Shown: positions 5,704 through 29,631, counted from the first letter of the stretch. The stretch is DNA of 61,434 nt from an uncultured Mageeibacillus sp. (GCA_964486135.1 CAZAKT010000002.1:1-61434); one strand, 5' to 3'. A program made the numbers and translations. The notes: generated from the letters alone by a model not told the origin.

Positions 5704-6744
5704 CTATTCCTGCCAGGAACTGACCAGGTCCTGGCCTTCCCGTGAGCTGAAGAAGCGGAAGGTGGGGCGGGGGACAAGCGGGGCTATCTCACGGATCTTT
5801 CCCGCGATCAGGAGGCCTCGTACACGTGAGGCCGAGATAACGATGCCGTCCTCCGATTTGATACGTGGCACCAGGGTCACGGAAATCCGATCCTCCAGTT
5901 GTTCCAGAAGACTCCTGTTATAGGTGAAGGTTACTGAATCATAGGGTTCGTCACCGACCGTGCGGTTGGTGATGCCAAGGGCGGGAGCGACGTTGTCCCG
6001 AAAGAGGATGGCGTCCAGGCTTGCCTGGGTCTTGGTCTCATCGGTCTCCTTCTTCAGAAAATAGGAGGGGAAGGAGGCCCGTGAAATGATGTAGTCCTCG
6101 GTCGGGTGGTAAATAATGCCCTCGAGATCGGCCGTCCCCTCGACTACCAGCCGGAAGCGGATATCAGCCGGAACAGTGGAGATGTCCTCGCTTATGACGA
6201 AAAGATGCAGCCTCTTTGAACGGGTCAGCGCGTTTTCGATCAGGGCCCGGTGGCCCAGGGTAAAGGGGTTGGCGTTCATAACGATGGATTCGACAGGCCC
6301 ACTGGCCTGGCCGTGCTCGTCTTCGTAGTCAGCAAGCGTTTGACGGAGGCCAGCCAGATAGTTTTCGAAAGCCGGCTCACCGCGCTCCATATAAGTCACC
6401 CCGTCCGGAGTGGTGGCCAGGGTCTTGAAGCCTAGGTTTTGAAAGGCAGTCACGGCCTCCGGTTTTGTATAAAGGAAGAGTTTTTCAACCCCCTCATCAT
6501 AGGCTTCGGTAATCAGGCCTGAGAGCAGTTCATTAAATAAGGCCTGGCCCTGACGGTCAGGCTTTATGGCGATGCACTTAAGCCGGTTTTCATCCCTGGC
6601 GCCTGTAGCGACCAGTTGGCCGTCTTCGTAAATACCCAGGACGACAGAGTAAGGGGGGTCCTTCTTCAATTCCGCTTCATCCAGAAGTTCTTCCCATTCC
6701 TGTGCAACTTCAGGAAGTTCGGTGATGTTCAATCTTTCAAGCAT
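5704..6744 (-). CDS. citC: [Citrate (pro-3S)-lyase] ligase
   Basis: N-terminal GNAT-like part plus IVMNANPFTLGH, YIISRASFPSYFLK, R-x-VG-x-EP and ISASRVR motifs. Start placed at ATG 6744 (AAGGGA upstream); the ORF track extends to 6843. Confidence 0.88.
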   Translation of the reverse strand: MLERLNITELPEVAQEWEELLDEAELKKDPPYSVVLGIYEDGQLVATGARDENRLKCIAIKPDRQGQALFNELLSGLITEAYDEGVEKLFLYTKPEAVTAFQNLGFKTLATTPDGVTYMERGEPAFENYLAGLRQTLADYEDEHGQASGPVESIVMNANPFTLGHRALIENALTRSKRLHLFVISEDISTVPADIRFRLVVEGTADLEGIIYHPTEDYIISRASFPSYFLKKETDETKTQASLDAILFRDNVAPALGITNRTVGDEPYDSVTFTYNRSLLEQLEDRISVTLVPRIKSEDGIVISASRVRGLLIAGKIREIAPLVPRPTFRFFSSREGQDLVSSWQE

Positions 6745-9724: not shown

Positions 9725-10171
9725 ATGCTTACAAATGAAGTGAAGGTCAAGCTGGTGGCGGAAGCTTTCGAGGCACGAAAAAAGAGTTATTCCCCTTATT
9801 CCAGATTCAAGGTCGGCGCCGCTCTCCTGACTTCGGATGGCCGGATCTATAGGGGGGCCAATATCGAAAACGCTTCCTATGGCGCCACCATCTGCGCGGA
9901 GAGGACAGCGGCGGTCAAGGCTGTCTTCGCGGGTTCCAGGCAATTTGTCGCCCTGGCGGTCGTCGGCTCTGAACAGGAGGAGGGCGGAGACATAGACTAT
10001 GCCTATCCCTGTGGGATCTGCCGGCAGTTCCTGCGCGAATTCCTGCCGCCTTCGGGCGATATGGTCATCCTGGTGGCCCGGGGCCTTGAAGATTACAAGG
10101 AAACAAGCCTGAATGCCCTGCTGCCGCATTCATTCGGGCCATCTGATCTCGATTATCTGTATGAGTCTTAG
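9725..10171 (+). CDS. cdd: Cytidine deaminase
   Basis: SYSPYSRFKVGAAL, NIENASYG, CAERTA, PCGICRQ zinc motif. Confidence 0.96.
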   Translation: MLTNEVKVKLVAEAFEARKKSYSPYSRFKVGAALLTSDGRIYRGANIENASYGATICAERTAAVKAVFAGSRQFVALAVVGSEQEEGGDIDYAYPCGICRQFLREFLPPSGDMVILVARGLEDYKETSLNALLPHSFGPSDLDYLYES

Positions 10172-10259
10172 GAGGGGAGGACCGGTCCTGTAGGGCCGTT
10201 CATCAATAAATGAGGAAAGAATGGCCCTGACGGGTCATCAATAATCAGGAGGAAAACCT

Positions 10260-11300
10260 ATGAAAAAGAGACTATTCAGTCTAATTCTGGTTCTCGCCTT
10301 GCTTGTGACGCTGGGCGTCGCCTGCGGAACCAAGGATGACGGCGGAAAAACGGAAGGAAAAAAAGTTGCCCTGATCACCGACCTCGGTGGTATCAACGAT
10401 GAATCCTTCAACCAGTCCGCCTGGAACGGCATGAAACAGCTTGAGGAAGACGGCATCAACATCTCATTTGTTGAATCTGAGAAGGAAGCTGACTACGCCG
10501 TCAACTTCACCAACAAGACGGAGGAAGGCAACGACCTGGTCTGGGGTATCGGCTTCCTGATGGAGCAGTCCATCATCGATGCCTCCAAGGAGCACAAGGA
10601 CCAGATGTTCGCCATCGTCGACGCCGGCTTCCCCGAGGGGGAATACCCCAACCTGGTGGGCGCCATGTTCAATTCGGAAGAGTCCTCTTTCCTGGTCGGC
10701 TACATTGCGGGCCACGTGACGGAGACTGACCATGTCGGCTTTGTCCTGGGTATGGAGGGGGACGTCATGTTCCGCTTCCAGTACGGCTATCTGGCCGGTG
10801 TGGCCTATGCCGCGGATGAGCTGGGCAAGGAAATCAGGGTTGATGCCGTGACCATCGATACCTTTGGCGACACGGCCAAGGGCAAGGCCACCGCCACCAA
10901 GATGTTCAGCGATGGGGCTGACATCGTCTACCACGCGGCCGGCCAGGCCGGTTCCGGCTGCATCACGGCGGCCAAGGAAATGGGCAAGTGGGCCATTGGC
11001 GTCGATCTGGACCAGAATGAACTGGCTCCCGACAATGTCCTGACCTCTGCCTTGAAAAATGTTGACCAGGCCGTCTACCAGCTTTCCAAGAAGGTTCTGG
11101 AGGGCGAAGAGGTCGGTGGCAAGACCTTCTTCTTTGGCCTCAAGGAGGGTGGCGTAGGAATCGCGCCCAGCTCGGACAAACATGTCCCCAAGGAGATCCT
11201 GGACAAGACAGCGGAAATCGAGAAGATGATCGTCGATGGGGAGATCGAAGTTCCGATCACCGCCGACGAATTTGAAGCTTTCAAAGGCAAGCTCGGATAA
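10260..11300 (+). CDS. BMP-family nucleoside ABC transporter substrate-binding lipoprotein
   Basis: Lipobox GVAC, DLGGINDESFNQSAWNG, YHAAGQAGSG, IGVDLDQ, GLKEGGVG. Confidence 0.92.
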   Translation: MKKRLFSLILVLALLVTLGVACGTKDDGGKTEGKKVALITDLGGINDESFNQSAWNGMKQLEEDGINISFVESEKEADYAVNFTNKTEEGNDLVWGIGFLMEQSIIDASKEHKDQMFAIVDAGFPEGEYPNLVGAMFNSEESSFLVGYIAGHVTETDHVGFVLGMEGDVMFRFQYGYLAGVAYAADELGKEIRVDAVTIDTFGDTAKGKATATKMFSDGADIVYHAAGQAGSGCITAAKEMGKWAIGVDLDQNELAPDNVLTSALKNVDQAVYQLSKKVLEGEEVGGKTFFFGLKEGGVGIAPSSDKHVPKEILDKTAEIEKMIVDGEIEVPITADEFEAFKGKLG

Positions 11301-11393
11301 AACCAGGATGGCGGCCAGCCGCTGTCTTCTATGAAATGAGCGCCCGGACAGCCTTTCACGGGGTGTCCGGGTGACTCTTATGGAGAGTCAAGT

Positions 11394-19055: not shown

Positions 19056-19472
19056 TCAGTCTCCTCGCAGCGCATGGGCCCGGCGGTTTTTCAGCTCTTC
19101 CATAAAGCGGTCATTGTCCCGGGCCGAGACATATAAATACTGGCCGTCATAGAGCTCCAGGGAGATCCGGTCCAGGGAGGTGGCCAGGGAAGAAATCGGA
19201 TTTTTTGTCCGGCCGACGGACCGGATCTCCCGGTAGGGGATTCTCTTGGTTACGGGTCCAAAGCGGAGGAGGAGGGTCTCCTCTTCCAGGGTCAGGTCAT
19301 TGCGGAACTGGATGGACAGGACGAAAAAAAGAGTCAGGGCCATTAAGGTCGCGCTGACCGTGCTGACCAGGCCGGGATCCTTGAAGGCAGCCAGGGCGGA
19401 GAAGGCTGTGGCCACTAAGATGGCCAGGACTACCAGGTACCACCATAAGGCTCGTTTGCCGGTGAAGGTCAT
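19056..19472 (-). CDS. Small membrane protein with a bacterial PH-like domain
   Basis: Two N-terminal TM helices, then RIPYREIRSV...SLDRISL...YVSARDNDRFMEEL; coupled to both neighbours. Confidence 0.7.
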   Translation of the reverse strand: MTFTGKRALWWYLVVLAILVATAFSALAAFKDPGLVSTVSATLMALTLFFVLSIQFRNDLTLEEETLLLRFGPVTKRIPYREIRSVGRTKNPISSLATSLDRISLELYDGQYLYVSARDNDRFMEELKNRRAHALRGD

Positions 19473-20647
19473 GCTCCCTCTTCCGCGATCAGGCTGTCGT
19501 AGACCAGCTTCATCCGTTGGAGTGAGGCCAGGAGAAGCTGGCGGGCACAGGCCAGGTTGACCCGCTCAAAGCCCCGGCCACCCTCGCCAAAGATATAGCC
19601 CTCGTCAAGATAGAGCCATCTGTCGATCATGCCTTGCTCCAGCCGTTCGTGGTCCCGGCAGACAGCGCGGAAGTCCAGCCAGGCCAGGTAGGTGCCCTCC
19701 AGATCAAAGACCCCCACCCGGGGCATCTGGTCCTGTATGAAGGTCTTGAGCGCCCTGTAGTTGTCCTGGACATAGACCAGCATGGCCTGGTACCAGTCAT
19801 CACAGGCGGTGTAAGCCATCTCCGCAGCGGCAAAGCCGAAGCTGCTGTGGGTGTGGACGCCGTCAGTCCGGACCCGGTCGGCAAAGATTTCCCTGTCTTT
19901 TGAGTCCTCGACCACAATGCTGGCGACTCCCAAGCCGGCCAGGGAAAAGGTCTTGCTGGCGGAAAAAGCGACCAGATGCCGGGTGCCGTGCTTCCGGGCC
20001 AAGCGGCTGAAAACGCAGTGTTCCTTCCCGAAGGTGAAATCGCAATGGATCTCATCGGAGATGACAAAGACGTCATATTTTACGGCCAGGCGGGCCATCT
20101 CATCCAGCTCCCACTCGTCCCAGACGCGGCTGACGGGGTTGTGGGGACTGCAGAGGATGAAGAGCCTCGATTGACTGATCTTCCGCTCGAAATCCTCAAA
20201 ATCGATGACATAGGCCCCCTCCCTGATCCTGAGTTCCTGGGTGACCAGGGTCCTTTGATTCTGTTCGATCGCGCGGAAGAAGGGATAGTAGACGGGAGTC
20301 TGGATCAGGACCTTGTCCCCCTTGTCCGAAAAGGCCCTGACAGCGGCATAGACAGCCTGTACGACACCTGTCGCCGGAACGATCCAGTCTTTTTCGACCG
20401 GGAAGCCGTGATGGAGGGAGTACCAGCGGTTGACCGCCTCATAATAATCCGGCCGGGGCCCGGTATAGCCCCAAATCCCTTCCTCAGCCAGGTCCTTCAA
20501 TCTTTCCCGGATGCAGGCGGGACTTCTGAACTCCATGTCAGCCACGGAGAGGGGGATGATATGTTGTCCGGGATCGACCGGGCCCGGGGCCTGGTCCCAT
20601 TTCATGGATCCGGTATTCCGGCGGTCGATGATCTCATCAAAATTCAT
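19469..20647 (-). CDS. MalY/PatB-family PLP enzyme (cystathionine beta-lyase-like C-S lyase)
   Basis: LSVADMEF, WGYT, LCSPHNP, SDEIH, PLP-lysine SASKTFSLAGL, EGTYLAWLD. Confidence 0.9.
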   Translation of the reverse strand: MNFDEIIDRRNTGSMKWDQAPGPVDPGQHIIPLSVADMEFRSPACIRERLKDLAEEGIWGYTGPRPDYYEAVNRWYSLHHGFPVEKDWIVPATGVVQAVYAAVRAFSDKGDKVLIQTPVYYPFFRAIEQNQRTLVTQELRIREGAYVIDFEDFERKISQSRLFILCSPHNPVSRVWDEWELDEMARLAVKYDVFVISDEIHCDFTFGKEHCVFSRLARKHGTRHLVAFSASKTFSLAGLGVASIVVEDSKDREIFADRVRTDGVHTHSSFGFAAAEMAYTACDDWYQAMLVYVQDNYRALKTFIQDQMPRVGVFDLEGTYLAWLDFRAVCRDHERLEQGMIDRWLYLDEGYIFGEGGRGFERVNLACARQLLLASLQRMKLVYDSLIAEEGA

Positions 20648-20664
20648 AGCCTATTCCCCAAGCC

Positions 20665-21573
20665 TCAGTCGTCCAGCAGCCAGTGTTCGATGATTTTGCT
20701 ATCATCAAAGCCGTGAAGGCCCAGATAGTATTCAAGGGACTCAGTCAAGGCGGCCAGGGGGGCCAGGCCGATGATCTCGCTTCCCAGGACCGGGACCCCG
20801 TAGCGGGCCGCCTCCATGCGGACCGTCTCAAAGACACGGTAGATGGGGGTTTTCCGATAGTCGGTGATGTTCATGGTCACCTGGACCAGGCCCTTTTCCT
20901 TCAGCTCGACGCCGCCGGCCTTGATTGCCTGAAAGCCGCCTCCGGACTGGCGGATGGCCCGGGCGATCCGGTCCGCGATCTCCAGCCTGTCCGTCCCCAG
21001 GTCAATGTTGTAGGCGATCAGGGGGAAGCGGGCCCCAACCGCCGTGACTCCGGCTGTGGGGTGGATCCTCCTATCGCCGTAGTCAGGCTCCCATTCGGGG
21101 AGAAGGAGTTTTTCCGGCATACCCTCGAACTGACCCCGGCGGATCTTCGCCAGGTTGACCCGTTCCGGCCGGGAGGCCGAGTCCTCGTAGAGGAAGACAG
21201 GGATGCCGTAGCGGATGTTGATCTCACTGGCCAGGGACTTGGACAGGTCAACGGCCTCCTCCACCGTCATATTCCTTATTGGGATCAGGGGGACGACATC
21301 GGTGGCCCCCATGCGCAGATGTTCCCCTTCATGCCGGTTCAGGTCGATCTTTTCAGTGGCTACGCCCACCGCGTCCAGGACAGCTTCCTTGACCGCCTCC
21401 GGCTCACCGAGCAGGGTGACGACCAGCCGGTTGTAGTCGGGGTCGGCCTCGTAGTTGACCAGCCTCACCCCTTCCCGCTTCTTCAGGGGGGCGACGATGG
21501 CTTCAATGCTATCCTTGTCGCGGCCCTCGCTGAAGTTGGGGACACATTCGACAATGGGCAGTCCTTGGGTCAT
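20665..21573 (-). CDS. ftcD: Glutamate formimidoyltransferase
   Basis: ECVPNFSEGRD, DPDYNR, HLRMGATDVVP, RFPLIAYNI, QVTMNITDY. Confidence 0.93.
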   Translation of the reverse strand: MTQGLPIVECVPNFSEGRDKDSIEAIVAPLKKREGVRLVNYEADPDYNRLVVTLLGEPEAVKEAVLDAVGVATEKIDLNRHEGEHLRMGATDVVPLIPIRNMTVEEAVDLSKSLASEINIRYGIPVFLYEDSASRPERVNLAKIRRGQFEGMPEKLLLPEWEPDYGDRRIHPTAGVTAVGARFPLIAYNIDLGTDRLEIADRIARAIRQSGGGFQAIKAGGVELKEKGLVQVTMNITDYRKTPIYRVFETVRMEAARYGVPVLGSEIIGLAPLAALTESLEYYLGLHGFDDSKIIEHWLLDD

Positions 21574-23600
21574 GACATATTCTCCTCGCTAGCCTGGCGG
21601 AGGGTGGCCTCGACCAGATCATCGTCGGCAAGATAGGGGAGGGTCAGCCGGTCGCGGCCCCCCATCTGCCTGTTATAGGCCCTGGCCGTCTCGATGGCAT
21701 TTTCATTCCTGGCCCAGGCCCGGCGGGCGACCCCTGCCATGACATCCCAGGGAACGGCGTTTCGCAGCACCTCATCGATCCGCTCGGAACCGTCGAGGAC
21801 GCAGCCGAAGCCGCCATTGATCGCCTTGCCAATGCCGGTGCCACCCCCGTTATGGAGGGCGCAAAGGCTCATGCCCCGGGCCGCGTTCCCGGCGAAGACA
21901 GAGGTGGCCATATCGGCTGTCACCTGACTGCCGTCATAGATATTGGAGCTTTCGCGGAAGGGTGAATCCGTACCTCCCGTGTCGTGGTGGTCGCGCCCGA
22001 TCATGACCGGGCCGATCAGGCCCTGGCGGACCATCTCATTGAATTTCAAGGCCATATTCATGCGGCCATGCGCGTCACTATAGAGGATCCGGGCCTTGGT
22101 GCCGACCACCAGCCTGTTCTGCTCCGCGTCGCGGATCCAGTTGTAGTTGTCCCGATCCTGGTAGCGGCGGTCGGGGTCGATGCAGGAGAGGGCAGCCTGG
22201 TCGGTCAGCTTGAGATCCTGCTCCTTGCCTGACAGGCAAACCCAGCGGAAGGGGCCGTAGCCAAAATCGAAGAGGAGGGGGCCCATAATATCCTCAACAT
22301 AAGAGGGCCAGATAAATCCGTCCCGGTCGTTCTCGCCGTTCTTTGAAATCTCCCTGACCCCTGAGTCGAAAATGGCCTTCATGAAGGAGTTGCCGTAGTC
22401 GAAGAAATAGCTTCCCTCTTCCGTAAGCTTTCTTATGGCCTGGAAGTGAGCTTTGAGGGAGCGGTCAACCGCTTCCCTGAAGGCGGCCGGATCCTGGGCC
22501 AGGAGCCGGGTTCTTTCCTCGAAGGACAGGCCCTGGGGGCAATAGCCTCCTGTGTAGGGCTCGTGGCAGGAGGTCTGGTCGGACAGGAGATCGATGGGGA
22601 AGGCCGTCTTAATCGCGTATTCCAGGAGGTCAACCACATTGCCGGAATAGGCGATGGCCAGGGCCTCTCTCCTGGCCAGGGCCTCCTCTGCCTTTTCGAA
22701 GGCCTCGGGACAGGACTGGGCGACCAGATCGATCCAGCCCTGGTCCAACCGGGTCTGAATCCGGGAGGCATCCACCTCGGCCACGATGGAGACGCCGCCC
22801 GCGATCTTACAGGCCTTGCCCTGGGCGCCCGACATGCCGCCAAGTCCCGAACTGACAAAGAGGCGGCCGGCCAGATTGCCGTCAGGGGCAATGCCCAGCC
22901 GCATGCGACCGGCATTGAGCAGGGTATTATAGGTCCCGTGGACGATACCCTGGGGGCCAATATACATCCAGCCCCCCGCAGTCATCTGTCCGTAGTTGGA
23001 AACTCCCATGGAAGCGGCCCGGTTGAAGTCGTCGGGGTTGTCATACTGGCCGATCATAAGGCCATTGGTCAGGATAACCCGGGGGGCGCTGATCTGGCTG
23101 TGGAAGAGGCCGACCGGGTGGCCGGAGAAGAGGACCAGGGTCTGCTCCCCGGTCAGGAGTTCAAGGTATTGCTTGATCAGACGGTATTGCATCCAGTTCT
23201 GGCAGACAGCGCCCGTCTCTCCATAGGTGATCAGTTCGTAGGGGTAGAGGGCCACCTCAAAGTCCAGATTGTTGTCGATCATAACCTGGAAGGCCTTGCC
23301 CTCAACGCAGTTGCCCTTGTAGTCCTGGATCGGTCTGCCATAGATCCTGCCGGGCGGCCGGAAACGGTAGCCATATATTTTTCCGTGTTGGTCGAGTTCC
23401 TTCAGGAATTCAGGGGCCAGTTCCGCATGATAGGCTTCCGGGACATAGCGGAGCGCGTTTTTCAGGGCGGTGGCCCTCTCCTTGTGAGAGAGCTTTGCCT
23501 CGCGTTTGGGTGCCCGCCGGATACCCGCCTCAAAGGTGGGATAGGGCGGCAGCGGGCCCTGGAGTGTGGCCGTCAGATCCGGCCTTGCTTCGTCTTTCAT
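21570..23600 (-). CDS. hutU: Urocanate hydratase, long (676-aa) form
   Basis: YGQMTAGGW, IGPQGIVHGT, GLGGMSGAQ, SDQTSCH, GPFRW, GRDHHD, HNGGG; GGAGG RBS before ATG 23600. Confidence 0.95.
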   Translation of the reverse strand: MKDEARPDLTATLQGPLPPYPTFEAGIRRAPKREAKLSHKERATALKNALRYVPEAYHAELAPEFLKELDQHGKIYGYRFRPPGRIYGRPIQDYKGNCVEGKAFQVMIDNNLDFEVALYPYELITYGETGAVCQNWMQYRLIKQYLELLTGEQTLVLFSGHPVGLFHSQISAPRVILTNGLMIGQYDNPDDFNRAASMGVSNYGQMTAGGWMYIGPQGIVHGTYNTLLNAGRMRLGIAPDGNLAGRLFVSSGLGGMSGAQGKACKIAGGVSIVAEVDASRIQTRLDQGWIDLVAQSCPEAFEKAEEALARREALAIAYSGNVVDLLEYAIKTAFPIDLLSDQTSCHEPYTGGYCPQGLSFEERTRLLAQDPAAFREAVDRSLKAHFQAIRKLTEEGSYFFDYGNSFMKAIFDSGVREISKNGENDRDGFIWPSYVEDIMGPLLFDFGYGPFRWVCLSGKEQDLKLTDQAALSCIDPDRRYQDRDNYNWIRDAEQNRLVVGTKARILYSDAHGRMNMALKFNEMVRQGLIGPVMIGRDHHDTGGTDSPFRESSNIYDGSQVTADMATSVFAGNAARGMSLCALHNGGGTGIGKAINGGFGCVLDGSERIDEVLRNAVPWDVMAGVARRAWARNENAIETARAYNRQMGGRDRLTLPYLADDDLVEATLRQASEENMS

Positions 23601-23642
23601 AAGGCCCTCCTTTCCTTTCACCATGGCTGTTTCAAGTATACT

Positions 23643-24664: not shown

Positions 24665-24692
24665 TTGTATTTGAAAACAAATCGGTTATACT
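24665..24692 (+). promoter_or_regulatory. sigmaA-like promoter for the xdhC operon
   Basis: TTGTAT (24665-24670), 16-nt spacer, TATACT (24687-24692) in an AT-rich gap. Confidence 0.45.
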
Positions 24693-24731: not shown

Positions 24732-25826
24732 GTGGACCCGATTTTAGCCGCTCTTGAACAAGCTCTCGAAGAAAAACAGGATACCGTTCTGGCGACTGTC
24801 ATCGCCAGCTCAGGCGCGACACCCCGGGGAGAGGGGGCCAGGATGCTGGTGGGAAGTGAGGACCGACTGGCGGGAACAGTCGGCGGAGGGGCCGTTGAAT
24901 TGCGGTCGATCCAAATCGCCCGGGAAGCCATCCGGGAGAGACGGTCCAACATCCATCACTTTATCCTGACCAAAAACCAGATAGAAGATATCGGTATGAT
25001 CTGCGGTGGCAACGCCACTGTCCACTATCTCTTCCTGGAAGCTGGGGATGAGGAGCTCCTGCGGACCGTCAAGGCCGCCCGGGAGGCCATCTCCAGGCGT
25101 CAGCCCAGCTGGCTCCTGACGGATATAAGCCAGGAGAATCAGCTGGGCCTGGCCCTTTTCACAGCCCCTGAGGGGGCCAACCCGGCCGCTCCTGATTTTG
25201 ATAGGGAGGGCTGGCTTTTCACCGGCTTCCCCCCCGATCATAAATGCACCAAGGCCCTCCTGGAGGAGCCTGGACTCCTCTGCCAGCGTGGACGGACCAT
25301 CGAAAGTTGCGGCCATAGCTTTTTTGTGGAGGAATTGGTGGTGCCGGGCCTGGTCTATCTTTTTGGCGGCGGTCACGTGGGCCAGGCCCTGACCCCTGTC
25401 CTGGCCCGGGCCCATTTCGCCGTCCTTGTCCTGGATGACCGGCCTGAGTTCACGGATCCCTGTCTCTTCCCCGGCGCCTATGATGTCCGGCTCTGTGACC
25501 TTGACCAGATTGATCGCTCTGTCTCCATCGGTCCCGAGGATTATGTCTGTGTCATGACGCGGGGCCACAGCAAGGACCTGGAGGTGACTGACCAGGTCCT
25601 GAAGACACCCGCCCGTTATATCGGGGTGATAGGCAGCCGTCACAAACTGGCCACCGTAGACAGACTCCTGACAGAGCGTGGCCAGAGCAAGGCGCAGCTC
25701 GAGCGCATAGTTTCCCCCATCGGCCTTGACATAGGGGGGGAGACACCGGAGGAAATCGCGATCAGTATCGCGGCCCAGATGATCGCGGTGCGATCGGGAA
25801 AACTCCAGGCCAGAAGAAAGCTCTAG
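24732..25826 (+). CDS. xdhC: XdhC/CoxI-family molybdenum-cofactor maturation protein
   Basis: GATPRGEGARM, GTVGGGAVE, GMICGG, FGGGHVG, MTRGH, YIGVIGS, SPIGLDIGGETPEEIAISI. Confidence 0.9.
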   Translation: MDPILAALEQALEEKQDTVLATVIASSGATPRGEGARMLVGSEDRLAGTVGGGAVELRSIQIAREAIRERRSNIHHFILTKNQIEDIGMICGGNATVHYLFLEAGDEELLRTVKAAREAISRRQPSWLLTDISQENQLGLALFTAPEGANPAAPDFDREGWLFTGFPPDHKCTKALLEEPGLLCQRGRTIESCGHSFFVEELVVPGLVYLFGGGHVGQALTPVLARAHFAVLVLDDRPEFTDPCLFPGAYDVRLCDLDQIDRSVSIGPEDYVCVMTRGHSKDLEVTDQVLKTPARYIGVIGSRHKLATVDRLLTERGQSKAQLERIVSPIGLDIGGETPEEIAISIAAQMIAVRSGKLQARRKL

Positions 25827-25836
25827 ACAAGCGGTC

Positions 25837-27630
25837 ATGGAAGCTTTTTCTGAAAGACTGTCATTCGCCTATCCGGCCGATGAGCGCCAGCTCCTTGCCT
25901 TTGTCAGGTCAAGCTTGGAAGGTCCGGAAAGGCGGCCCCTCCTTCTGACGGGGGCCATAGGTTCGGGAAAATCTACCTTTGTCCAGCACCTGATTGATGA
26001 CCTGGGGGCCGTACCGGCCGGCTATATGACCATCCGCCATATCGATGCCGATGAGAGACGCCAGTGTTTCACACATGTGCCCGCCGGCAATCAGCGGGGG
26101 ACCGGCTTCCTGACGGTCAGACACCATGAGGGCGACAGCTTCCCTGAGGGAAGCTGTTTTCTTATGGCGGACGGTCAAGGCCGCCATTTCGACCTGGACC
26201 GCTTCGACCGGTCGGTATCCCCCCTGATCGACCGGCCGGGGACCCTGCTGGTCCTGGATGAGCTGGGGGGCGACGAGCTCCTGCTGGACAACTTCTACCG
26301 GAAAATCCTCGATTTGCTGGGAGATAGGTCAAGATCAATCATCGTGGTATGGAAGAACGATGTCTCCTTTGAAAGGTCGGTCGGCCGTTCATCCCTGGCA
26401 GAAGAGGAAAAGGACTTGATCAGGGAACGCCGGCAATCCATCGTGTCGCATCCCGGCCTGGTCCAGGTCGAACTCTTGAACGGAGGCCAATCCCTGGCGC
26501 ACGAGAGGCGGACCCGGTGGGGGAGCGCCGCCGCTCCGGCTCCCCTCCCGGTCCAGGGAGTTTCGGCCTCTGCACAGGAAGAAAGGGGTCTGGCCCCGCA
26601 AAAGGCTGAAGGCCGGCCCAGGCGCATGTCGCTCCGCTTCGCCATCCTCTTTATCCTGCTCCTGGCAATCATCACGGTCTCCTTCGCGGTCGGTTGGTAT
26701 GGCATCAGTCCCGCGACCATCCTTCGATTTTTCTGGAGCCAGCTCTTCCGGACGGGTGAAAGCTTCGCGACCGAAATCCATACCGTCCTGATCAATGTCC
26801 GCCTGCCCCGCATCGTCCTTGGCCTCCTGGTCGGGGCCGGGCTTTCCGTCGCGGGACACAGCTTCCAGGGTGTATTCCAAAACCCCATGGCCTCTCCCGA
26901 TGTCCTGGGAGCCTCATCGGGCGCTGGATTTGGCGCCGCCCTGGCCATCCTCTGGGGGCTTCCCTCCACGGGAATAACCTTGTTTTCCTTCTTCTTCGGC
27001 CTGCTCTCCATCGTCCTGGTCCTCTTTCTGACCTCCCTGGTCAGGGCGCAAAGGGTCCTGGCCCTGATTTTGACAGGGATCGTGGTCGGCTCACTCTTCT
27101 CAGCCGGTCTTTCATTCATCAAGCTGGTGGCGGACCCCCATGACCAACTGCCCGCCATCACCTACTGGCTCATGGGCTCCCTTAATTCATCCCAGGTGAA
27201 ACAACTCTCCTTTGCCGGACCCCTGATCCTGGGTGGCCTCCTGCTCATTCTTCTCCTTCGCTGGCAACTCAATGTCCTTATGGCCGGTGAGGAGGCTGCC
27301 CAGGCCATGGGGGTAAGGACTCGGCTTCTTCGGATCATCCTGATCCTGGCGGCCACCCTGGTGACGGCAACCGCCGTCTCTGTCAGCGGGGTGATCGGCT
27401 GGGTAGGCCTGGTCGTCCCCCACATCGCCCGTATGATCACAGGGGCCGACAACCGCTATTCCCTGCCGGCCTCCGCCCTCATCGGTGCCGGCTTTTTGAT
27501 CTTTGTCGATGATATCGCCCGGCGGGCGACGACGAGCGGGATCCCGCTCGGTATCCTGACCGCTTTTATCGGCGCGCCCTTTTTCATCTACCTGATCCTC
27601 CACCAGGGACGGAAGGAAGGGGCCATCTGA
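25837..27630 (+). CDS. Fusion: NTPase_1/THEP1-like P-loop NTPase + FecCD/BtuC-family ABC permease
   Basis: One uninterrupted 597-aa ORF. It has Walker A GAIGSGKST and Walker B LLVLDELG, an Ala/Pro linker, then permease motifs VRLPR, QGVFQNPMASPDVLG, GEEAAQAMG and GWVGLVVPH. Confidence 0.85.
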   Translation: MEAFSERLSFAYPADERQLLAFVRSSLEGPERRPLLLTGAIGSGKSTFVQHLIDDLGAVPAGYMTIRHIDADERRQCFTHVPAGNQRGTGFLTVRHHEGDSFPEGSCFLMADGQGRHFDLDRFDRSVSPLIDRPGTLLVLDELGGDELLLDNFYRKILDLLGDRSRSIIVVWKNDVSFERSVGRSSLAEEEKDLIRERRQSIVSHPGLVQVELLNGGQSLAHERRTRWGSAAAPAPLPVQGVSASAQEERGLAPQKAEGRPRRMSLRFAILFILLLAIITVSFAVGWYGISPATILRFFWSQLFRTGESFATEIHTVLINVRLPRIVLGLLVGAGLSVAGHSFQGVFQNPMASPDVLGASSGAGFGAALAILWGLPSTGITLFSFFFGLLSIVLVLFLTSLVRAQRVLALILTGIVVGSLFSAGLSFIKLVADPHDQLPAITYWLMGSLNSSQVKQLSFAGPLILGGLLLILLLRWQLNVLMAGEEAAQAMGVRTRLLRIILILAATLVTATAVSVSGVIGWVGLVVPHIARMITGADNRYSLPASALIGAGFLIFVDDIARRATTSGIPLGILTAFIGAPFFIYLILHQGRKEGAI

Positions 27631-28448
27631 TGGACAGGCGACCGGTAATGACGAAGGGAATCGAGGTGGAGGGCCTTTCCTTCCGCTACAGGGCCGAGCC
27701 CGTCCTGACCGATCTGTCCTTCCAGGCTGGGGGCGGTCGGGCCATCGGGGTGCTGGGCGCCAACGGGGCCGGCAAGTCGACCCTCTTCAAACTGATCCTG
27801 GGCATCCTCCCCCTCCAGGAGGGGGGGATCCGGGTCAACGGTAATCCCCTTACCGAACTTTCAGTCAAGAAAAGGGCCCTGGAAATGGCCTATATCCCAC
27901 AGACGGAAACCGGCAGTTTCTCTTTTTCCGTCGAGGAGGTTGTCCTAATGGGAACGACAGCCAGCTTCGGTATGTTCTCGCAACCGGGAAGAAAAGAGAG
28001 GGAGAGGGTGGAAAAGGCCTTGGCCCTGATGAAGATCGAGTCTTTCAGGGACAGGCGCTATGACCAGCTTTCCGGCGGCGAGCAGCAGCTGGTCCTGATA
28101 GCCCGGGCAGTCGCCCAGGACGCCCCCATCCTGATCATGGATGAGCCCTGTGGCAGCCTGGACTACGGCAATCAGATCCGGGTCCTGGAGCAGATCCGCA
28201 GCCTGGCCGACCAGGGCTACCTGGTCCTCTTCTCGACCCATAACCCCCAACAGGTCTTCCTCTACGCGGACGACGTGCTTCTTATCAGCGGCCACACGGC
28301 CTACGCCTACGGCCCGCCCCACGAAGTTCTTTCCGAGTCCCTGCTCACCCATGTCTATGGTATCCCCATCCGATTGGAGGAAAGTGCCCGGACAGGTGAT
28401 GTCACTGTCCTGCCCGATTTCATTAAAATCCGGCAAAATCGTAAATAG
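27630..28448 (+). CDS. Class III metal-chelate/oxyanion ABC ATP-binding protein (FecE/MolC-like)
   Basis: GANGAGKST, AYIPQ, LSGGEQQ, IMDEP, STHNP. Confidence 0.9.
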   Translation: MDRRPVMTKGIEVEGLSFRYRAEPVLTDLSFQAGGGRAIGVLGANGAGKSTLFKLILGILPLQEGGIRVNGNPLTELSVKKRALEMAYIPQTETGSFSFSVEEVVLMGTTASFGMFSQPGRKERERVEKALALMKIESFRDRRYDQLSGGEQQLVLIARAVAQDAPILIMDEPCGSLDYGNQIRVLEQIRSLADQGYLVLFSTHNPQQVFLYADDVLLISGHTAYAYGPPHEVLSESLLTHVYGIPIRLEESARTGDVTVLPDFIKIRQNRK

Positions 28449-28457
28449 GAGAAATTT

Positions 28458-29570
28458 ATGAAAGCCAAATCGAAGAAAGCAATCACCCTCATCCTGTCGC
28501 TGATCCTCCTCCTGACAGCCCTCACAGCCTGTAGTCCTGAGACACCCGCTCCTCAGCCGGGAGAGACGGGGGAACCCACCGAGTCAGAAGAGGAGACGAG
28601 CGCAATTTTCCAGGATTCGGTCGGCCGGGAGGTCGAACTCCCCCTGCCCCTGACCCGGATAGCGCCCTCAGGCACCCTGGCGGACATTGTCCTTTACACG
28701 GCCTGTCCCGATCTCCTCTGTGGGATTTCCATCCCCTTCACGGAGACTCAACTTAAGCTGATCGACCCGAAATATGACGAATTACCCGTTATGGGCAAGT
28801 TCTACGGCAAGGGCCCGGACTTCAACCTGGAGACAGTACTTGCGGCCCAAACACAGGTGATCGTGGATATCGGGGAGCCCAAGGACTCGATTGAGGATGA
28901 TCTGGATGAGCTCATGGACCAGATCAAGGTCCCCACCGTCTTCATCGAGGCCCTTTTTGATGATATGCCGGGGACCTACCGGACCATCGGCCGCCTGATC
29001 GGGGATCAGTCGCGTACGGATCTGCTTGCCGAATACTGTGAGGAGACCCTGGCCCTGGTCCGCAAGGCCGGTGAGGAAATCCCGGAGGAGGATAGGGTCC
29101 GTGTCTACTGGGCCATGGGCGAGCTGGGGCTCAATACCAACGCGGTTGGATCCTTCCACAGTGAACTGCTCGACTACATCCCCGTCGTCAATGTCGCGGA
29201 AGTTGAAGTCGCCAACCGGGGAGGGGGGAGCGAGGTATCCATGGAGCAGATCATCCTTTGGGATCCCGACTACATCCTCATTGATACCCTGGCCCTGGCC
29301 GGGGAGATTCTGGATGACCCCGCCTGGCAGTCATTGCCGGCCATAAAAGAGGGGCGCTATCAGGTGGTTCCCACCCAGCCCTATGGTTTTCTGGCCAACC
29401 CGCCCTCGATCAACCGTTATCTGGGGATGCGCTGGCTGGGGACTTTGCTCTATCCGGAGATCTACACGGCTGAAACAGAGGACGAGGTCAGGGACTTCTT
29501 CTCACTTTTCTACAGGATTGAACTGGATGACAGCCAGCTTGAGGCCATCCTCGACGGCACATTCAATTAA
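28458..29570 (+). CDS. Class III (TroA/FecB/MolA-like) ABC substrate-binding lipoprotein
   Basis: Lipobox LTAC, EQIILWDPDYI, W-x-S-LPAIKEGR, PPSINRYLGMRWL. Confidence 0.85.
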   Translation: MKAKSKKAITLILSLILLLTALTACSPETPAPQPGETGEPTESEEETSAIFQDSVGREVELPLPLTRIAPSGTLADIVLYTACPDLLCGISIPFTETQLKLIDPKYDELPVMGKFYGKGPDFNLETVLAAQTQVIVDIGEPKDSIEDDLDELMDQIKVPTVFIEALFDDMPGTYRTIGRLIGDQSRTDLLAEYCEETLALVRKAGEEIPEEDRVRVYWAMGELGLNTNAVGSFHSELLDYIPVVNVAEVEVANRGGGSEVSMEQIILWDPDYILIDTLALAGEILDDPAWQSLPAIKEGRYQVVPTQPYGFLANPPSINRYLGMRWLGTLLYPEIYTAETEDEVRDFFSLFYRIELDDSQLEAILDGTFN

Positions 29571-29604
29571 TCAGGGGGGAACTCCTGCCCTTGTTTCCCT
29601 TCCT

Positions 29605-29631
29605 GAAGCCGCCGGCCCAGCCGGCGGCTTC
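29605..29631 (+). terminator. Stem-loop ending the xdhC/ABC operon
   Basis: 11-bp stem GAAGCCGCCGG / CCGGCGGCTTC with a 5-nt loop; no strong U-tract. Confidence 0.55.

Follow-up and report, generated by a model that had tools for sequence, protein, structure and literature searches.

The molybdenum cofactor (Moco) is regarded as being made by every organism that uses it, as it is considered too labile to be exchanged. Caenorhabditis elegans takes up Moco from its diet, and Peng et al. (2018) described several hundred "orphan molyboprotein" prokaryotes that encode proteins of the xanthine oxidase (XO) or dimethyl sulfoxide reductase (DMSOR) families and no complete cofactor pathway (PMC6147048). 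Those orphan genomes were mostly also without known molybdenum transporters, and unknown biosynthetic components or Mo-independent enzymes, not uptake, were proposed for them (PMC6147048). In neither the worm nor the orphans has a transporter been identified. Here, we describe a candidate for one in an organism that likewise has Moco enzymes and lacks the pathway. The candidate is encoded by an operon at positions 24732-29570 of a 61,434-nucleotide stretch of DNA, hereafter the window, from an uncultured Mageeibacillus sp. (GCA_964486135.1 CAZAKT010000002.1:1-61434), in which xdhC is followed by an importer whose permease is fused to a nucleoside triphosphatase (NTPase). We place the probability at roughly one half that the cargo of this importer is preformed molybdopterin cofactor, handed to the NTPase and to XdhC.

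The closest described transporters are ATP-binding cassette (ABC) importers of type II, whose usual cargoes are large cofactors, for example B12 and haem (PMC4245157). MolBC-A of Haemophilus influenzae (HI1470/HI1471/HI1472), which carries molybdate and tungstate, has the same FecCD-type permease, ABC ATPase and cluster A binding protein as the window importer, and both are linked to molybdenum metabolism. BtuCD-F (cobalamin) and HmuUV-T (haem), of the same transporter class, follow a salvage logic in which a large cofactor is taken up ready-made, often with a riboswitch for that cofactor in control. XdhC of Rhodobacter capsulatus and PaoD of Escherichia coli are Moco-binding maturation chaperones, and the window XdhC, like them, contains both XdhC Pfam domains. 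The nearest counterpart of the fused NTPase is THEP1 of Aquifex aeolicus (1ye8), its best match by both Pfam profile and fold. We know of no link between THEP1 and either transport or Moco.

The window operon departs from each of these systems in its wiring. Its four genes all lie on the + strand: xdhC (24732-25826; 364 amino acids (aa), GTG start, XdhC_CoxI and XdhC_C domains), the NTPase-permease fusion (25837-27630; 597 aa), an ABC transporter ATPase (27630-28448; 272 aa; PF00005 (ABC_tran), 7e-31) and a lipoprotein substrate-binding protein (28458-29570; Peripla_BP_2, cluster A, MolA/4PAG subgroup). The initial annotation had called these open reading frames and their tight spacing, and both held, with junctions that consist, in order, of a 10-nt gap, a 1-nt TGATG overlap (spacing -1) and 9 nt containing GGAG. 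The fusion is made up of a THEP1-like P-loop NTPase domain on the predicted cytoplasmic N-terminus of the permease (25837-26481, aa 1-215; PF03266, with NTPase_1 at aa 35-175), a low-complexity linker rich in Ala, Pro and Gln (26482-26622), and a FecCD/BtuC-type permease domain (26623-27630; FecCD at aa 274-588) that matches PF01032 at 4.3e-84 over model positions 1-310 of 311. These four genes are found together again in 21 of the 22 genomes of the genus and, with the NTPase unfused, in other families, so the gene order is not due to chance, and a real and conserved four-gene operon is confirmed. By their sequence profiles, the permease, ATPase and cluster A binding protein together qualify as a type II ABC importer of the BtuCD/HmuUV/MolBC class. 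Unlike MolBC-A, the importer has an NTPase fused to its permease, its operon starts with XdhC, and its host is without the genes to use molybdate; BtuC and HmuU, too, are without a fused NTPase.

The host genome (G000; 1.55 Mb in 60 contigs, 92.8% complete, with the window in contig C2) encodes four XO-family enzymes, three of which, XdhA, a selenium-dependent xanthine dehydrogenase (XDH) and a pterin aldehyde oxidoreductase, score above curated cut-offs; the other is a fourth member of the family. It also encodes a formate-dehydrogenase-like enzyme of the DMSOR family (contig C41:4542-5810; L122). The initial annotation had named a genome devoid of Moco enzymes as grounds to refute its reading; this was not what was found, as there are four XO-family enzymes and one of the DMSOR family. 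The formate-dehydrogenase-like gene and the SelD gene (C5:58717-59643; L013) each contain one in-frame TGA, and both products are therefore probably selenoproteins. A tRNA-Sec gene was seen in a relative, genome G012 (L020:1608-1700). The late maturation genes are retained, namely a YqeC::MocA fusion, a MobA::FdhD fusion, SelD and the one XdhC. Adjoining the selenium-dependent XDH gene is a fusion of NTP_transf_3 with a ModE-N-type helix-turn-helix (DVU_1551-family; C5:22162-22575; L031:1003-2049, - strand), which may combine tailoring of the cofactor with a regulatory role.

In the same 92.8% complete genome, MoaA, MoaC, MoaE, MoeA_N and MogA were not found, the sole PF00994 protein being CinA, and tblastn searches with the MoaA, MoaC, MogA-MoaE and MoeA-like proteins of congeners gave no match. 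No ModA- or TupA-type binding protein was found in the genome either. The sole PF13531 protein was considered as a ModA and rejected, as it is a PhnS2/thiamine-type binding protein encoded with a TOBE_2 ATPase. The loss is also seen in synteny. In G012, the gene order is yqeC::mocA, sulfatase, mogA-moaE, moaC, moaA, isochorismatase, tuf, fusA, and at the corresponding place in the host (contig C31:12433-13268; compare L020:5519-9431) yqeC::mocA and the isochorismatase gene stand just 835 bp apart, the sulfatase gene being gone along with mogA-moaE, moaC and moaA. This shows that the early pathway was excised while the neighbouring late tailoring genes were kept, and that its absence here is not an assembly gap. 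The 835-bp interval keeps a short ArsC/Spx-like frame and a small membrane-protein frame. The organism thus appears to be a Moco auxotroph.

In order to place the importer among its relatives, an unselected sample of 101 genomes was used, in which the binding protein was counted at E <= 1e-20; as these relatives are non-independent, the counts are descriptive and not a test. XO-family enzymes occur in 48 of the 101, and MoaC or MoeA_N in 26, of which 19 fall among those 48. The binding protein was found in 35/48 relatives with XO-family enzymes compared to 2/53 without them. Among the former, it is present in 25 of the 29 genomes that have neither MoaC nor MoeA, and in 10 of the 19 that have either one. 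Within the genus, every one of the 22 genomes carries 3-8 XO-family genes and 21 carry the fused permease, while MoaC is present in only 6 and MoeA in 7; the congeners with neither include 97% complete genomes and one assembled in 6 contigs. Four congeners with Moco genes (G007, G012, G015 and G019) encode a second set of permease, ATPase and binding protein, at 35-44% identity, beside a MoeA-like gene, and this paralogous importer was seen in no genome without biosynthesis.

A wider search of species-representative genomes with a 5-row alignment of the binding protein yielded 80 loci (33-92% identity). These come from Bacillota (Saccharofermentanales, Lachnospiraceae, Butyricicoccus, Intestinimonas, Flavonifractor and Acetobacterium) as well as Spirochaetota, Synergistetes, Coriobacteriia and Anaerolineae. 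XdhC directly adjoins the importer in about 30 of the 80, in two phyla (one case in Treponemataceae) and in two gene orders, with xdhC either preceding the permease gene or following that of the binding protein. The NTPase profile is present at 42 loci, usually as a separate gene of 170-250 aa beside the permease or XdhC, and its fusion to the permease was seen only in this genus. Genes that recur nearby also encode MocA-type transferases, XO-family enzymes, DUF364/DUF4213 and a SAM (S-adenosylmethionine) methyltransferase, and MoeA-like or moa genes are found there as well. On this distribution and these neighbourhoods, the link between the importer and the maturation of XO-family enzymes is strongly supported.

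Features of some individual homologous loci were also noted. In genus g9 (L035; G038:C61:26000-44000, about 10139-11353), a binding-protein homologue with an insertion of ~120 aa, in a frame of ~495 aa, has two XO-family genes and a gene resembling MocA as neighbours, and XdhC, NTPase, permease and ATPase genes lie 36 kb away on the same contig. A metagenome-assembled genome (MAG) from Clostridia encodes a 563-aa protein (L060:4128-5819) in which the two XdhC domains are C-terminal and preceded by a long additional stretch, and a 343-aa protein consisting of MoCF_biosynth only (L060:6295-7326) is encoded between XdhC and the permease. In an Intestinimonas isolate, an ssnA RNA motif (RF03031; L103:4683-4730, - strand) lies a few kb from the XdhC-linked importer.

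For 50 genomes carrying the binding protein, the enzymes and the pathway were examined together. XO-family enzymes are present in 49, MoaC in 26, MoeA_N in 24 and neither of the latter two in 24. The genomes without MoaC and MoeA_N include those of isolates, namely Intestinimonas aquisgranensis CLA-AA-H199, Intestinimonas sp. HCP28S3_D6 (in both of which the importer is XdhC-linked), Lachnospiraceae bacterium LCP25S3_G4 and Flavonifractor plautii ATCC 29863. The MoaA C-domain was absent from all five genomes of this kind that were checked. ModA was found in 21 of the 26 carriers with biosynthesis compared to 2 of the 24 without, which shows that the canonical molybdate transporter is lost along with the pathway while the importer is retained. 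These patterns bear on an ordinary importer of iron chelates, haem or cobalamin that stands beside xdhC by happenstance, which we consider the least probable of the explanations weighed here. The initial annotation had expected the operon to be labelled as iron/B12 transport, and homologues are indeed named "iron chelate uptake ABC transporter" in databases; in addition, the best NCBIfam similarities of the importer are to BtuC, to haem and corrinoid ATPases and to FecCD. However, every one of these equivalogs is far under its cut-off (BtuC 221.6 against 461, FecD 169.9 against 406, FhuB 161 against 554-849 and the haem ATPase 194.7 against 261). Such an importer would also not be expected to track XO-family enzymes across relatives as this one does, nor to adjoin XdhC, NTPase, MocA and MoeA genes in several gene orders and phyla. 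Relative to BtuCD-F and HmuUV-T, therefore, equivalog-level similarity is missing, and profile and neighbourhood point to molybdenum enzymes and not to B12 or haem.

Additional evidence comes from the Moco riboswitch, an RNA class that senses the cofactor, not just the metal (PMC2408646). RF01055, the aptamer for Moco and the tungsten cofactor (Tuco), lies directly upstream and on the same strand of six homologous importer operons: L081:6703-6840, L088:7912-8061, L104:7911-8064, L078:7950-8066, L082:7163-7303 and, in tandem, L063:5725-5857 and 5985-6139. Three of the six genomes (G141, G145 and G149) are without MoaC, MoeA, MoaA and ModA, and F. plautii ATCC 29863, with the order riboswitch, NTPase, permease, ATPase, binding protein, is among them. 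A cofactor-sensing switch placed before an importer in an organism that does not synthesise the cofactor is the design of B12, thiamine and riboflavin salvage transporters, and in this respect the six operons resemble the logic of BtuCD-F and HmuUV-T. The six loci also speak against cobalamin, haem or iron chelates as cargo. Some of the riboswitch-controlled operons contain a gene resembling, by sequence motif only, a SAM-dependent methyltransferase (L082:7390-8094 and L088:11205-12008).

The binding protein itself was compared with solved structures. Its sequence (PF01497, 9e-11; lipobox LTAC) matches 4pag best (8e-41), followed by 4ovk and then MolA, 3psa (2.9e-11, C-lobe only), 4pag being an uncharacterised Sulfurospirillum protein and the closest solved relative. 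An AlphaFold2 model with a predicted local distance difference test (pLDDT) score of 93.5 gave the same order in Foldseek (4pag 1e-28, 3psa 4e-19), and the fold comparison with MolA gave template modelling (TM) scores of 0.63-0.71 at 19% identity, a distant resemblance. Glu125 and Glu263 (E125 and E263) do not vary across the family and would occupy the positions of the docking glutamates of BtuF. K221 and R264, named as MolA ligands (bioRxiv 10.64898/2026.10.15.759412), are the oxyanion ligands in lobe II and align here with S232 and L278, which is weak evidence of their replacement given the 19% identity and an inferred numbering offset of 21.

These comparisons bear most directly on the principal rival, in which the importer is a low-affinity molybdate/tungstate transporter like MolBC-A and the metal enters a pterin made or acquired by other means. 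We judge this unlikely, although it is a good deal less so than the other alternatives, and most of the observations that favour it also weigh against import of the finished cofactor. Of the characterised binding proteins, the closest is MolA, whose ligands are molybdate and tungstate. Among cofactor-making relatives, the paralogous importer adjoins a MoeA-like gene (L020, L021, L026 and L040) and other homologous importers adjoin moa genes (L112 and L118), a placement natural for a metal importer. The binding-protein tree interleaves XdhC-linked with MoeA/Moa-linked loci and does not form two clades, so that, as far as the tree can tell, one substrate class probably serves both contexts; a two-clade model, with XdhC-linked importers for cofactor and MoeA-linked ones for metal, found no support in the same tree. 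DUF364, which is usually found beside molybdate and tungstate transporters (PMC2954201; bioRxiv 10.1101/2024.03.05.583561), is part of some importer modules, and the Moco riboswitch is itself known upstream of molybdate transporters (PMC2408646). Further points weigh against cofactor import: RF01055 was found neither upstream of xdhC nor elsewhere in this genome, many of the carrier genomes are MAGs, in which the absence of a gene is never certain, and a bacterial importer of Moco or molybdopterin was not on record in the literature searched. Finally, free Moco is very labile. In some lineages, DUF364/DUF4213 lies between XdhC or the NTPase and the permease (L037:4734-5468, L108:7383-8132 and L063:7157-7951); this protein is annotated as "putative heavy-metal chelation", with a flavin or pterin derivative as its predicted target.

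Against a metal cargo stands the missing acceptor pathway. With MogA/MoeA and all molybdopterin synthesis genes missing, molybdate or tungstate would be of no use to this genome, and the same lack of a known acceptor pathway applies to the 24 of 50 carriers without MoaC and MoeA, unless XdhC and the NTPase might replace MogA/MoeA. Moreover, a metal importer would not be expected to persist (25/29) where ModA has gone with biosynthesis, to be so rare in Moco-making genomes without XO-family enzymes, or to be needed by the 21 of 26 Moco-making carriers that already have ModA. The replacement of K221 and R264 also argues, weakly, against oxyanion binding. The proposal in the initial annotation that the importer supplies molybdo-hydroxylases is therefore kept in part. 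The binding-protein family is nearly confined to genomes with XO-family enzymes, it adjoins XdhC, MocA, MoeA-like genes or the enzymes themselves, and six loci carry the riboswitch, all of which agree with it; the molybdate or tungstate that was proposed as cargo fits this genome poorly, and so does an early precursor such as cyclic pyranopterin monophosphate (cPMP), which could not be processed as no MoaE was found in it.

Four considerations favour import of preformed cofactor over these options. Tailoring and insertion of Moco are within the capacity of the host, whereas making molybdopterin and inserting the metal are not; genomes that have lost biosynthesis keep the importer and not ModA; the transporter class is one that carries large cofactors; and an NTPase and a Moco chaperone joined to the permease suit the hand-over of a labile molecule. 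The NTPase domain scores 31.5 bits against PF03266 (cut-off 23.9), with homologues reaching 95 bits. Its Walker A (G39, G42, G44, K45 and T47) and Walker B (D141 and E142) residues are invariant across 20 homologues, giving the motifs GxxGxGK[ST]T and DE, and both Walker motifs are intact, as in THEP1. An AlphaFold2 model of the domain (pLDDT 87, falling below 50 from residue 222) has THEP1 as its nearest fold, a loose match with a Foldseek E of 3e-4 and TM scores of 0.47 (query) and 0.62 (target). Identity to THEP1 is 18%, and the family of the domain differs from it in its setting, with members joined to, or neighbouring, a permease and XdhC. The linker ends in RPRR directly before the first transmembrane helix, and the positive-inside rule, together with the topology of BtuC, would place the NTPase on the cytoplasmic side. 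YqeC and MobB were considered as identities for this domain and rejected, as neither family was matched even at E up to 10; the real YqeC is encoded elsewhere in the genome, fused to MocA.

XdhC is the other proposed recipient. The window protein scores above cut-off for both of its domains (PF02625, 64.6 bits, 8e-18; PF13478, 138.1 bits, 3e-40) and is the single PF02625 match in the genome, making it the sole XdhC for four XO-family enzymes. Compared to R. capsulatus XdhC and E. coli PaoD, it is encoded with an importer and not with enzyme subunits, and it does not reach the curated cut-off of either named subfamily (NF045664, XdhC_rel_AOR, 293.3 against 350; TIGR02964, xanthine_xdhC, 153.4 against 161.6). 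XdhC-type proteins act at the step that fixes the terminal S or Se ligand, and Haft and Self (2008), who define the YqeB/YqeC/YgfJ accessory set, do not mention a transporter (PMC2276186). This site of action raises a further explanation, that the importer brings in a selenium species or another small ligand that finishes selenium-dependent molybdenum hydroxylases while the cofactor enters by another route. In its favour, SelD, YqeC and a selenium-dependent XDH are all encoded in the genome, and Se_S_carrier and TusA genes occur near the locus of one relative. Such a cargo is nevertheless improbable, only a shade less so than iron, haem or B12: SelD was found in 31 of the 50 carriers and is missing from the closed 4.7-Mb chromosome of G131 and from several XdhC-linked loci, the riboswitches of the homologues respond to Moco/Tuco and not to selenium, and the linkage to MoeA and moa genes in other genomes would be left unexplained.

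Under cofactor import, the lipoprotein would bind, outside the cell, a molybdopterin-type cofactor that is already formed, the likeliest being Mo-molybdopterin or a closely related derivative shed by neighbouring microbes, and the BtuCD-class permease and ATPase would bring it in. The labile cofactor would then be received by the THEP1-like NTPase on the cytoplasmic face of the permease and by XdhC, tailored by the retained YqeC::MocA and MobA::FdhD proteins, with SelD for the selenium ligand, and passed to the four XO-family enzymes and the formate-dehydrogenase-like enzyme. The cargo is deduced here from association, and the hand-off and the role of the NTPase are proposals. A MolA-related protein, a BtuCD-class transporter, a THEP1-like NTPase and an XdhC receiver may together be the first recognisable bacterial system for the import of preformed Moco, a tentative claim to which we give slightly less than even odds.

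The boundaries of the operon were also inspected. A single promoter-like site had been annotated, and its motif can be read by eye (24665-24692, + strand; TTGTAT at 24665, a 16-nt spacer and TATACT at 24687) in an 82-nt gap downstream of a ROK kinase gene, but it is weak and was missed by a consensus promoter scan, which called no + strand promoter. The predicted terminal hairpin is borne out as a G+C-rich 12-bp structure (29605-29631, + strand; RNA folding dG -37.9 kcal/mol, z -3.6 relative to shuffled sequences). A second, weaker hairpin (29572-29587) lies between it and the end of the binding-protein gene, and neither hairpin is followed by a clean T-run. The ROK kinase, hut genes, C26 peptidase and MgtE were considered as parts of the module and rejected, as they are syntenic only inside the genus. 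Upstream in the window (19469-23624, - strand) lie hutU (urocanase), ftcD (glutamate formimidoyltransferase) and a gene for a PatB-type C-S lyase, whose synteny is genus-wide and which fall outside the importer module.

In total, sequence comparison marks the operon as a variant form of the MolBC/BtuCD class that is tied to the maturation of Moco enzymes, with cofactor salvage as its most likely function. Even with a metal cargo, the NTPase-permease fusion and its coupling to XdhC would be an undescribed wiring of uptake to enzyme maturation. The retention of the importer where biosynthesis is lost, together with the Moco riboswitch in cultured gut species, makes the puzzle of the orphan genomes directly testable. 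If cofactor import is true, many gut and digester anaerobes would be able to run XDHs and related enzymes without cofactor biosynthesis, which would account for the "orphan molybdoprotein" genomes and turn Moco into a vitamin shared within the community by cross-feeding. The widespread "iron chelate / B12 transporter" annotation would also be corrected. The breakdown of purines and uric acid by gut Clostridia would then depend on the Moco producers of the community, altering models of that process.

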